The notes below the pieces were generated by a model. It was not told the DNA's origin. It ran no database searches and worked only from the letters and a program-made list of their open reading frames with translations. Shown one piece after another: positions 8,095-11,018 of a stretch of DNA of 64,000 nt. Positions within the stretch are counted from its first letter, which is position 1. Each line of letters begins with the position of its first letter. Origin of the DNA: Pseudovirgaria hyperparasitica (lineage: Eukaryota); assembly GCA_010093815.1 (NCBI GenBank), contig ML996582.1, one strand, 5' to 3'. The translations under genes were made by a program, and so were the position numbers.

Positions 8095-8210
8095 CTGATT
8101 CACTAGCACAGCACTAGCGCGAACATTCTAACCAAGAGCGCTCCCGAGGCCACCACTTCACTTCATGTATTTGCGGCACATCTTACGACTCGGTCTCAGA
8201 CGCATGCAGT

Positions 8211-8732
8211 ATGTCTCGCGAAATAATTGCGCCCTTGGACCATACTGCATACCTTCGTCTTGCTCTTACAGAAGCACGGAAATCACCCCCAAAGGCTACA
8301 AACTTCTGCGTTGGTGCCGTGCTCGTCGATGAAGAACGCAATGAGGTTTTGGCAACAGGCTACACGCTCGAGCTTCCAGGAAACACACATGCTGAGCAAT
8401 GTTGTTTGATGAAATTTGCACAAACTAGAGGGGTTTCCGAGGACTCAGTTGGAGATATACTGCCGAAATCGACGGTCATCTACACTACCATGGAACCTTG
8501 CGTGTTCCGGCTCAGTGGGAATGCACCTTGCGTTGATCGTATCATACAGACGCAGCTTGGTGGCCATGAAGGTATCAGGATAGTCTATCTCGGCGTAAAG
8601 GAACCGGAGAAGTTTGTCGGAGAGAATGAGGGCCGTTCCAAGCTCCAAGCAGCGGGCGTCAAGAGCATACACGTTCCCGGATTGGAGGACGAAATACTTC
8701 AAGTAGCAACGGCTGGTCATGCGAAAGACTAG
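8211..8732 (+). CDS. Zn-dependent cytidine/dCMP-deaminase family protein, Rib2-type DRAP deaminase-like, 173 aa
   Basis: FCVGAVLV, TGYTLELPGNTHAEQ (HxE) and YTTMEPC...PC (PCx8C) zinc motifs; intronless. Confidence 0.85.
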   Translation: MSREIIAPLDHTAYLRLALTEARKSPPKATNFCVGAVLVDEERNEVLATGYTLELPGNTHAEQCCLMKFAQTRGVSEDSVGDILPKSTVIYTTMEPCVFRLSGNAPCVDRIIQTQLGGHEGIRIVYLGVKEPEKFVGENEGRSKLQAAGVKSIHVPGLEDEILQVATAGHAKD

Positions 8733-9092
8733 CAAATGCGATGAAGAGCGTTGTTATAGGTAAGAAATGGTTTTCTGTCGTATTACCACAATCCGATATT
8801 AGAATCCCATTCCCCTGTATCGCATTTAAGGGATCTGCGTCTTGGGTTACACGTGGGGAGCCTTTTTAGCGTGTTTATGTCGTCATGACTTTTCTACATA
8901 CGGCGAAGCGTGTCGGTGTGTATGTATGTTGATATATGACGTGCTATCGCTCGTATTATCTTACACCTTTGTATTCCCATTCCAATGCGTTCTCTCATCA
9001 ACCCTACTTTCACCTGTAAATCTCTGCGTTCGTTCCAATCGTCTAGATTCACCACATTGAAAGTATCGACTGCTCGCACTCAAACCACAAAT

Positions 9093-9917
9093 ATGTCTTC
9101 TCGTATGTTTATTCTTAGCTATTCGTCGACCTAGCCTGAACTAATTCAACCCTTCAAGTGAGCATCGATGTCCAGACCAAAGACCTCAAGTCTAAGCCAG
9201 GTGTCGAGCTTGATTCCGAGCAGAAGACTATCATAGGCAGCGTACTAGATCTTTTCAAAGGCCTTCCATCAAAAGAGAAATTGTCTCTGTGGAAGGACGA
9301 TGCTGTTTTCGAAGATCCATTGACTGACGCACGCGGTCGCTCGCAATTTGAGGCTCAATGGGTATATATTATTCCTTCCAATCTTGCTCGGCCCGCTAAA
9401 CATGCAACCAGTATGGTCTGGCTGCGGCTTTTTCGAAGATCGAATTACAGTCACATGAGGTTATCTCCGCCGGGAACCCAATAGTATTAGATGTGAAGAA
9501 CCTTTACACTGTCAAAGGAATCAACAAGGAACAACTCATCCAATCCAAGATAGAGATCTATGTTGGCCCAACGGGAAAGATTGAGAAGGTTCTCGATAAG
9601 TGGGATGGCAGTATTCCTGATGGACCCTTTGCAAGTGTGAGTAGCCCCTGGCAACTATTCAGTCCCTTTTGGTGGATCAAATATACCGAAGCCTGGGTTT
9701 TCTGGCTTTGGAGTTTAGTCTGGGGGACCAGGTTGTGGTGGGTGCGTGGTGCAATTCACCTGCATGTCATAAATTGCTCATCTATGGAAATAACACTGGT
9801 GAATAGACCTATACTGACTATTACATTCAGGCATTCCGCCGTCTCAACGCAAAGGTCGTTCCAGGATTTGTGTCTGTTCCAAAGGATGCTGCGGAGGAGG
9901 CCAAGAAGAGCTCTTAG
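9093..9917 (+). CDS. SnoaL/NTF2-like hypothetical protein; exons 9093-9102, 9159-9361, 9412-9636 (or -9741), 9831-9917; 174 or 209 aa
   Basis: Three GT-AG introns join the ORF fragments in frame: MSSL|SIDV...LWKDDAVFEDPLTDARGRSQFEAQW|YGLAAAF...GKIEKVLDKWDG...AS|AFRRLNAKVVP...KKSS*. DAVFEDP..A.GR and GKI....D.W are NTF2/SnoaL-like hallmarks. Confidence 0.8.
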
Positions 9918-10042
9918 TTCACTAAATGGATTTTCATGTATCATGACCATAGGGCATCAAATATAACGAAGTTATCATATAAATCTTACACAGATCATTT
10001 AGAATGTTGCCGTGCTGTGCGGATGTTTCGATGTTCAATTAA

Positions 10043-10058
10043 GTCACGTGCACACGTG
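10043..10058. promoter_or_regulatory. Tandem E-boxes (GTCACGTG, CACGTG) ~90 bp upstream of stn1
   Basis: CACGTG at 10045-10050 and 10053-10058 (bHLH/Cbf1-type consensus); function is inferred. Confidence 0.3.
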
Positions 10059-10144
10059 GAAGCGCGTCTGGCCCGACACGTCACCCTGCCCAGAGGAATC
10101 TCTACTTCTCAGGTTCACACCATATCAATAAGCAACATTATGAC

Positions 10145-11018
10145 ATGACGACGCGAAGAAGTCAGCAGGCTCAGAATAACGATATATACCCGGCGCGTTA
10201 CTTCAAGGCTTCACGGACGTATGATGCTTGGGTACATTTGACTTGCAGCGATGTGCACGCTCTCCGTGCGGTGCGAGGCTTTGAGGGTACGTCTGTCGAG
10301 CATCGTGCATCAGATGGCTCAATTCGATGATGGGACACTATCATATTCTGCTCTCAGAGTGACAACTGACAATTGCGCAGGTCAGCAACTGCTCTTTCAC
10401 CGAAACCATCCGATCCGATTCGTACGAATAACCGGGCCGATCAACAGTATAACCGATCTCTCTGCCAGATTTACTCTATTTACGATCGATGATAGCAGTG
10501 GCAGCACCCTCGAGATTAAGGTCCCTCGATTGCCTGCGGAAATTGCCGACTCTCCCGAGTGCCCTTCCAATACTGCGATCGATAATTTGAACGTTCATAC
10601 AGCACTTGGGATTTTCGACGTAGTCGTTGACGACATCGTTCTTGATATTGGCACTGTTGTGAGCACGAAAGGCATCGTTTGCGAGTTCCGGGGCATCAGA
10701 CAATTGGACCTGAAGAGGATCAAAGTTCTGAAGACTACGTTGGAGGAAGCGCGCTTATGGGCTAATATGTCCAAATTCAAGAACGATGTGCTGAATCAAT
10801 CGTGGGTCCTGACTCCCGAAGAACGAGCAAAGCTAGATCTTCGGGCCGCAGCGGAAGAAGAGAAGGATAGAAGGAAGCAGAAGGAGTGGGCCGTGTATCG
10901 GAATAAGAAAGCTGAGAGAAAGAGATTGGCAGAGGAGAAGCGCAGAGAGAAAGCCGAAAAATACGAACGGCGGAGGTTAAGAGAAGAAGAGAAGATGAAT
11001 CAAGGAGCATTGATTTGA
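10145..11018 (+). CDS. STN1: CST complex subunit Stn1-like OB-fold protein, 259 aa; exons 10145-10286 and 10381-11018
   Basis: A 94-nt intron (GTACGT...CTGAC...CAG) joins ...GFE|GQQLLFHRNHPIRFVRITG...FTIDDSSG...LDIGTVVSTKG...FRGIRQL...EEARLW, matching the Stn1 N-terminal OB motifs (NHPI, DDSSG, E...W). Confidence 0.8.

Follow-up and report, generated by a model that had tools for sequence, protein, structure and literature searches.

In a 64,000-nucleotide (nt) stretch of contig ML996582.1 of Pseudovirgaria hyperparasitica (assembly GCA_010093815.1; this whole stretch is here denoted the window), a four-exon gene on the plus strand, with its ATG at 9093 and its TAG stop at 9915-9917, encodes a protein with a predicted NTF2/SnoaL-like core. 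The last intron of this gene carries two in-frame 5' donors, and the account that we consider likely is an old, selected alternative 5' splice site that toggles a hydrophobic, predicted helical segment in the protein. The strong upstream donor (GTGAGT, 9637) removes 194 nt and joins the core straight to a conserved tail of 28 amino acids (aa), and the weaker downstream donor (GTGCGT, 9742) would remove 89 nt and leave 35 extra codons between core and tail. The insert, rich in Trp, Phe and Tyr and largely uncharged, is probably a helical hydrophobic segment, such that the long form would most likely be tethered to a membrane or lipid surface and the short form would be soluble. The alternative appears to be old and common to Leotiomycetes, Lecanoromycetes, Dothideomycetes and Sordariomycetes, with both outcomes presumably under selection.

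The last intron has two in-frame donors and one acceptor

The gene model was read in the window between 8700 and 10500 together with the stop-to-stop frames; all features given here lie on the plus strand. Exon 1 (9093-9102) has 10 nt, begins with the ATG and reads ATGTCTTCTC, and is followed by intron 1 of 56 nt (9103-9158). Exon 2 (9159-9361) encodes the first part of the core, as indicated by contig joints, its translation and weak matches to SnoaL_2 and DUF2358. Beyond intron 2 (9362-9411, 50 nt), exon 3 (9412-9636) encodes the remainder of the core and ends in ...DGPFAS. Exon 4 (9831-9917) encodes the tail, AFRRLNAKVVPGFVSVPKDAAEEAKKSS, and the stop codon; it is supported by its translation, by contig cover and by conservation of the tail in relatives.

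The upstream donor GTGAGT (9637-9642) and the downstream donor GTGCGT (9742-9747) are exactly 105 nt apart, each in phase 0, and share the acceptor CAG at 9828-9830, leaving both products in frame. A putative branch site common to both, TACTGAC (9812-9818, with CTGAC at 9814-9818), was recognized by its sequence, and CTGAC or CTAAC motifs are likewise found close upstream of the acceptor in relatives. The stretch between the donors (9637-9741, here denoted the cassette) comprises 35 codons: translation of 9412-9741 yields exon 3 followed by VSSPWQLFSPFWWIKYTEAWVFWLWSLVWGTRLWW, 35 residues including nine Trp and zero stops. Arithmetic on the contig-confirmed exons predicts a short product of 174 aa and a long product of 209 aa, and the stop-to-stop frame extends from 9400 to 9966, where full retention of the last intron would end. 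As the other introns measure 56 and 50 nt, an intron of 194 nt is atypical for this gene and one of 89 nt less so. A preliminary description of the window had reported the donors with their spacing and phase, the branch and acceptor motifs, the stop-free stretch with nine Trp, the sizes of the two isoforms, the read-through to 9966 and the unusual length of the 194-nt intron; re-reading and translating the sequence reproduced each of these.

Spliced contigs confirm use of the upstream donor

To these letters we aligned contigs of two sequencing runs (X1 and X2) of one sample, which contain 57-58% of the sampled words and whose library type is unrecorded. Contigs covering 8900-10200 are 100% identical to the window, and in both runs they are joined at 9102->9159, 9360/9361->9411/9412 and 9636->9831. 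All three joints have GT..AG ends, indicating that the contigs derive from spliced RNA. The gene model and the use of the upstream donor, which gives the 174-aa short form, are thereby established in this organism, as is the shared acceptor through the joint 9636->9831.

The cassette is conserved in relatives

Word-based searches identified both forms among related sequences. The gene model of one homologue, P0004, reads through its own intron, and the resulting Trp-rich stretch of 35 residues aligns to the cassette of the window; another, P0005, comes from a contig of 924 nt and has the short form, with ...DGPIAN directly joined to AFRRLN. We compared exon 3 plus the cassette exhaustively by phmmer with 1.84 billion representatives of clusters at 50% identity and obtained 218 matches at E<=1e-3; among the 150 listed, each from another 50% cluster, many span residues 1-109/110 and hence include the cassette. 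In these matches the cassette follows the pattern VS..QL.SP.WW..Y.E.W.WW.WS..W.T..W., then V[R/C/S/G], and then unrelated sequence. Replacements within it are conservative, among W, F, Y and L. The nearest relative (P0006, 75% identical) likewise has an intact cassette.

To follow the locus at the nucleotide level we fetched 80 loci from a metagenome scan, representing 70 unique relatives. In 47 of the 70, a cassette of 31-38 codons is followed by a further 57-149 nt of intron; in 20, an intron of 50-64 nt starts at the same upstream donor and the cassette is absent; and three (L052, L055 and L056) have no intron, so that the gene itself reads as the short form. The cassette was thus found at similar length in 47 related loci as well as in dozens of diverged protein clusters. 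Because the dual-donor arrangement of the window recurs in 47 other unique loci and with a coding substitution pattern, it lies far beyond chance.

Two closely related loci, L013 and L039, resolved the choice in opposite ways: L013 has an intact cassette and TTAAGT in place of the upstream donor, and L039 has kept GTAAGT and has three stops in the cassette. In both loci (L013, 1501-1918; L039, 1501-1910) exon 4 is out of frame relative to the family consensus, and they may be paralogues or pseudogenes.

The cassette evolves as coding sequence in a single frame

The substitution pattern was analysed in 41 unique sequences with no stop in the first 34 cassette codons (L019, L039, L047, L080 and L051 were excluded), and the ratio of non-synonymous to synonymous differences (pN/pS) was computed over 17 phylogenetically independent pairs. 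In frame 0 the cassette has a pN/pS of 0.24, with 85.2 synonymous and 109.8 non-synonymous differences (synonymous excess, P=5e-20); the corresponding values in frames +1 and +2 are 1.46 and 1.06, and stops interrupt these frames in 17 and 16 of the 41 sequences, respectively. Mean pairwise differences at codon positions 1 to 3 are 0.37, 0.39 and 0.50 in the cassette and 0.24, 0.17 and 0.52 in exon 3.

At the nucleotide level, the cassette is intermediate in identity between exon and intron. In pairs with 88-93% identity in exon 3, identity is 0.90 in exon 3, 0.72 in the cassette, 0.57 in the following intron (with 20% gaps) and 0.87 in exon 4; in pairs with 70-80% identity in exon 3, the values are 0.74, 0.64, 0.44 and 0.71. 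This intermediate identity and the low pN/pS in frame 0 imply that the cassette is translated, and that purifying selection acts on it less strongly than on the core. As had been suggested from its run of stop-adjacent TGG codons, the stretch between the donors is almost certainly a selected coding segment, and constraint at the protein level is established by the substitutions themselves.

Both donors are conserved

Of the 68 loci that have the intron, 64 show GTG or GTA at the upstream donor, compared with 100 of 348 exon-3 Val codons that end in a purine. AGT follows as the next codon in 56 of the 68, AGC in 10 and TCN in none, compared with AGT in 92 of 424 exon-3 Ser codons. As this codon bias exceeds the usage of exon 3, the apparent Val-Ser is a GTRAGT splice signal. 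The upstream GT is lost in two loci, L013 (TTAAGT) and L051 (ATACGT).

At the other end of the cassette, 44 of 48 loci that carry it have an in-frame GT within a few aligned codons, against a background of 6% per codon within the cassette. The hexamers at this site are GTGCGT (16), GTGAGA (9), GTGTGT (5), GTGAGG (4) and GTGGGT (3), with others found singly. The column is Val in 39 of the 41 aligned sequences, and the sequence beyond it is unconserved and gap-rich. L004 and L034 are loci without an in-frame GT at this position. Conservation of both donors, in place and in phase, is therefore established in the relatives.

These two signals bear directly on whether both sites are used. Constant use of the upstream donor would let the cassette drift, and an upstream donor that is never used would lose its GTRAGT bias; the upstream donor is used in the RNA examined here and both signals persist in the same lineages, which argues for alternative use. 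In the clade as a whole, we consider use of both donors highly probable. The upstream donor fits the consensus, and the downstream donors are weaker and offer a shorter intron, so that the balance between the two might set the isoform ratio.

The orthologues had been proposed as a check on the spacing and on the Trp positions. Both donors, the coding pattern and whole-codon spacing (31-38 codons) are kept among them; the number of Trp varies, and stops were found in four loci.

Public annotation contains both isoforms

We classified the 120 best of 417 homologues from a profile search by script, three short forms being added by eye to 40. Short forms make up 43 of these 120, and spliced long forms, in which 29-41 residues are inserted, another 33; 18 read from the cassette into unrelated sequence, 12 have other forms, including in-frame full retention, and 14 have no match to the motif. 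One gene of Diaporthe vaccinii, FJTKL_02319, is annotated with both isoforms, KAL2289315.1 (271 aa) and KAL2289314.1 (231 aa), the only difference being a cassette of 40 residues that separates ...SGAISD from AFRKLN in the longer one. A genome paper for this species, in the part available, reports deposited RNA sequencing (RNA-seq) data and an in-house pipeline that includes CodingQuarry (PMC12060661). A second D. vaccinii genome paper exists.

Closely related proteins may also differ in form: a single 90% cluster unites long forms of Diplodia intermedia (211 aa) and D. corticola (212 aa) with a short form of D. seriata (176 aa). The models of P0159, P0200 and P0188 contain partial cassettes of 23-29 residues, either because they splice at other in-frame GTs within the cassette or because its first residues are missing, which indicates that gene predictors are inconsistent at this locus.

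The family includes Erysiphe, Hyaloscypha, Acephala, Lachnellula and Glarea, which are Leotiomycetes; Caloplaca, Xanthoria, Letharia and Lecanora, which are Lecanoromycetes; Elsinoe, Diplodia, Aureobasidium, Cladosporium and Cryomyces among the Dothideomycetes; and Diaporthe, Colletotrichum, Hypoxylon, Apiospora and Pestalotiopsis among the Sordariomycetes. This sharing among four classes suggests that the switch is probably hundreds of millions of years old.

Weighing the splice switch against other explanations

Several observations weigh against a switch that operates in this organism. The splice switch had been put forward in the preliminary description with a comparison of the junctions 9636^9831 and 9741^9831. 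The former is present in RNA, and was assembled in both runs as the sole junction of the last intron, and both isoforms are annotated in D. vaccinii; the latter is absent from the X1 and X2 contigs, which keep the dominant path and lose rare variants. As contigs favour the dominant path, the long form could still be made, as a minority at most. All spliced long forms that we found are NCBI gene models and none comes from transcript-like contigs. Transcript-like short contigs of other species (Logan, MERC and JGI) carry short forms only (P0005, P0073, P0229, P0241, P0267 and others), and a search with residues 146-210 of P0181, which gave seven candidates and four matches, returned no spliced long form from a transcript-like contig; P0287, recovered in this search, is an in-frame read-through. 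For the Diaporthe pair, the locus-tag prefix FJTKL is not mentioned in the accessible part of PMC12060661. The lack of transcript-derived long forms is the main weakness of the case. In addition, selection constrains the cassette less than exon 3 (pN/pS 0.24 vs 0.12 in frame 0), and the openness of frame 0 in the 41 sequences holds by their selection and so is no independent result. Four cassette-bearing loci (L019, L039, L047 and L080) have stops within the cassette; together with its absence from 23 of the 70 relatives, this indicates that many lineages can do without the long form.

The dominance of the short form in the assembled transcripts is what would be expected if the cassette were a relic, that is, if the 194-nt intron were constitutive here, the 174-aa protein the only product and the cassette a remnant of ancestral coding sequence that has not yet decayed. 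Repeated loss is indeed seen in the family, where the cassette has decayed in the four loci with stops, is deleted in 20 and has gone together with the intron in three. The cassette is intact, however, both in the window (35 codons, nine Trp) and in P0006, and purifying selection in frame 0 was measured where all lineages keep a consensus upstream donor, which implies that the cassette is translated in those lineages; the window has kept the downstream GT as well. We regard the relic as unlikely, and use of both donors in P. hyperparasitica as probable. Retention of the whole intron, which would yield the core, the cassette and an unconserved tail, here up to 9966, draws on the frame that is open to that position, on the in-frame read-through of the entire intron into exon 4 in L001, L004, P0050, P0142, P0165, P0177, P0189 and P0287, and on intron retention being the commonest alternative splicing in fungi. 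Retention does not fit the phase-0 GT with which the cassette ends in 44 of 48 loci, the Val column there in 39 of 41 sequences or the unconserved, gap-rich sequence that follows. Moreover, the length between upstream donor and exon 4 is not fixed modulo 3, all three residues being found among the loci, so that retention would usually lose the highly conserved tail, and we judge it quite improbable as the main explanation. In L004 (1501-1968) and L001 (1501-1983), the stretch from the upstream donor to exon 4 is stop-free and a multiple of three, and full retention would stay in frame.

That the cassette is rich in TGG and GT and more conserved than the rest of the intron could also point to a non-coding element, for instance a splicing enhancer rich in G and T, a structured RNA or a small RNA encoded in the intron. 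Such an element would not account for a synonymous bias confined to one frame, for third codon positions that vary most (0.50, against 0.37 and 0.39) or for conservative replacements among W, F, Y and L, and we give it very little weight. A scan of 9000-10100 against Rfam at E<=10 gave a single, chance-level match (FTX_3, E 3.9, 17.6 bits vs a gathering score of 55), which lends no support to an RNA gene in the intron. The nine TGG codons in 35 had further led to the suggestion of a Trp-sensitive translational element. In 42 spliced long-form cassettes Trp ranges from 1 to 11 (median 6), Colletotrichum-type cassettes having one or two, while aromatic and hydrophobic character is kept; moreover, the entire core is translated before the cassette, which sits close to the 3' end of the reading frame. 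Since hydrophobic character is conserved and Trp number is not, Trp sensing fits poorly, and we rejected an attenuator of this kind as scarcely credible.

A predicted NTF2/SnoaL-like core and a hydrophobic cassette

The exon pieces of the window match SnoaL_2 with 14.2 bits (cut-off 27) and DUF2358 with 13.6 bits, both weak, and the homologue P0005 reaches 25.2 bits for SnoaL_2. Among 44 full-length homologues, SnoaL_2 is found at E<=0.01 in 31 (best 1.7e-6) and DUF2358 in 19 (best 6.1e-5), and seven of the 120 best homologues have a precomputed PF12680 label. DUF2358 (PF10184) does not reach its gathering score of 24.3 in P0158 (18.6 bits) or P0066 (18.0 bits).

As a structural guide we used an AlphaFold2 model of the Erysiphe long form P0066, a homologue of the window protein, built on a 42-row alignment. 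The model has a mean predicted local distance difference test score (pLDDT) of 79.6, with 86-95 in the blocks of the core, which forms an alpha+beta cone. Foldseek with this model matched 134 chains of the Protein Data Bank (PDB) at E<=0.001; the top matches were limonene-1,2-epoxide hydrolase, the isomerases NsrQ and Dcr3, and steroid delta-isomerase, with E values from 8e-6, target TM-scores of 0.6-0.69 and 10-17% identity. PDB sequences compared with the family profile gave no match at E<=1, and a search of the ESM Atlas returned only clusters named generically 'SnoaL-like' or hypothetical. An NTF2/SnoaL-like fold of the core, as first proposed, is thus supported in the homologues by the profile matches and the modelled structure.

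In the P0066 model the cassette (157-190) has helices at 159-162 and 165-182, and a further helix (187-203) begins in its last residues and continues into the tail. pLDDT across these helices is 54-73, and 54-70 over the cassette, so that the geometry has moderate confidence; a hairpin or an in-plane helix are alternative arrangements that the cassette may adopt. On the Wimley-White scale, the summed interface energy of the window cassette is -17 kcal/mol, and its best 19-residue octanol window scores -13.6 vs +6.1 for exon 3. In 42 spliced long forms the median best octanol window is -10.1 in the cassette vs -0.1 in the core, and the cassettes have a median of 10 Trp, Phe and Tyr residues. 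Residues K, E, T and R break up its hydrophobic stretches. Composition and the moderate-confidence model suggest that the insert could mediate membrane or lipid association, a proposal for which we see about even chances.

Comparison with known splice switches

In the literature collection that we searched, which was limited, we found no paper describing this splice event. The closest analogue is Saccharomyces cerevisiae PTC7 (PMC7491326): when the intron of this phosphatase gene is retained and translated, the enzyme gains a transmembrane helix and changes its location. Related yeasts share the event, which in Tetrapisispora blattae has been resolved into separate genes. By analogy with PTC7, the present gene has an in-frame translatable intron stretch that would add a hydrophobic segment, conserved in relatives, some lineages of which no longer switch. 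Whereas PTC7 relies on intron retention in Saccharomycotina, the gene described here has competing 5' donors with one acceptor and spans Pezizomycotina, and its insert, near the C-terminus of an NTF2-like fold, is Trp-rich and not a classical transmembrane helix. A difference in localization between isoforms has been demonstrated for PTC7; here a membrane segment is proposed from sequence and model.

Two other fungal systems share parts of this arrangement. As with SKI7/HBS1, a rare protein-diversifying splicing event has been kept for long in fungi and repeatedly lost, either with the intron or by its becoming constitutive (PMC3597508 and PMC7491326, in the parts available). SKI7/HBS1 belongs to another family and uses alternative 3' sites to make two proteins with separate functions, in contrast to the one short cassette here. 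In malate dehydrogenase (MDH) of Yarrowia lipolytica, as far as the available part of PMC3372373 describes it, splice-site choice near the protein end likewise decides whether a localization element is present; such targeting cases add or remove short signals, unlike the 35-aa hydrophobic segment upstream of a conserved tail.

Within the NTF2-like superfamily, the modelled core of P0066 resembles SnoaL_2 proteins, limonene-1,2-epoxide hydrolase, NsrQ/Dcr3 and steroid delta-isomerase, but none of the solved relatives matched, at 10-17% identity, has such an insert. DUF2358, the family of mouse 2310061I04Rik and human C6orf136, matches 19 of the 44 family members weakly, and membership is not established, since the scores lie below the Pfam cut-off (P0158, 18.6 vs 24.3 bits). 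The mouse protein was reported to be mitochondrial (10.1101/2023.08.10.552737, in the part consulted), which fits presequence-like N-terminal extensions on some fungal models.

Long-conserved splicing that diversifies proteins is rare in fungi, with few well-documented cases (SKI7/HBS1, PTC7 and MDH). The locus would add a clean case in filamentous ascomycetes, with two conserved donors, a coding pattern in a single frame and repeated loss in lineages. It also explains why annotations disagree (of the 120 best homologues, 43 are short and 33 long) and offers annotators a rule, that both forms are legitimate. For a widespread NTF2-like protein, it suggests a role in regulated attachment to a membrane or lipid surface.

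Intronless short genes, deleted cassettes and lost upstream donors show that each form is the sole form somewhere in the family, and the intronless genes would fit a short-form mRNA copied back into the genome. A wider reading, which we hold tentatively and with more doubt than confidence, is that of a switch across the four classes of Pezizomycotina that equips a possibly mitochondrial NTF2-like protein, or not, with a Trp-rich anchor for membrane or lipid interfaces, with alternative N-termini (from the ATG at 8985 or the exon end at 8730-8759) directing the ligand-binding fold to several compartments and with lineages resolving the switch in opposite directions. If so, lineages would have resolved it by deletion of the cassette, by intron loss through mRNA copy-back, or by loss of the upstream donor, leaving only the long form. 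That P. hyperparasitica uses its downstream donor, with some balance between long and short form, and that the long form binds membranes, we infer from the conserved signals and the composition described above.

N-terminus and neighbouring genes

The gene may begin further upstream. An in-frame ATG at 8985 would add a possible N-terminal extension (8985-9092) of 36 aa, MRSLINPTFTCKSLRSFQSSRFTTLKVSTARTQTTN, which is rich in Arg, Ser and Thr and has zero acidic residues. Its frame is open from 8940 to 9134, and an RNA contig that ends in exon 1 extends ~170 nt upstream of 8900 and covers the extension. Similar extensions precede the internal Met in the homologue models P0005, P0009, P0157, P0193 and P0165. 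By its composition, the 36-aa extension resembles a mitochondrial presequence and might have a targeting role.

A second upstream connection was seen in a 60-nt contig of both runs, of which 28 letters correspond to 8730-8757 and are followed directly by 9157/9159-9188. This points to an alternative upstream exon end (8730-8759), with a donor GTAAGA at 8760, joined to exon 2; these 30 nt start with the stop codon that ends the upstream gene. They contain an ATG, at 8741, whose frame continues into exon 2 and would encode MKSVVI|VSIDV.... The joint may mark an alternative first exon; otherwise it would stem from read-through of the upstream gene.

That upstream gene (8118-8732) encodes a zinc deaminase (Inv-AAD, PF18785, E 2.4e-58; dCMP_cyt_deam_1, E 1.6e-15). 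In two lichen-fungus models of 343 aa, P0185 of Variospora velana and P0186 of Seirophora lacunosa, the deaminase is fused to the NTF2-like protein, indicating that the gene order is conserved; the deaminase and the NTF2-like gene may share transcripts. Downstream, an open frame at 10242-11018 has a weak match to Stn1, a telomere regulation family (PF10451, E 9.6e-6, 25.2 bits, cut-off 21.5).

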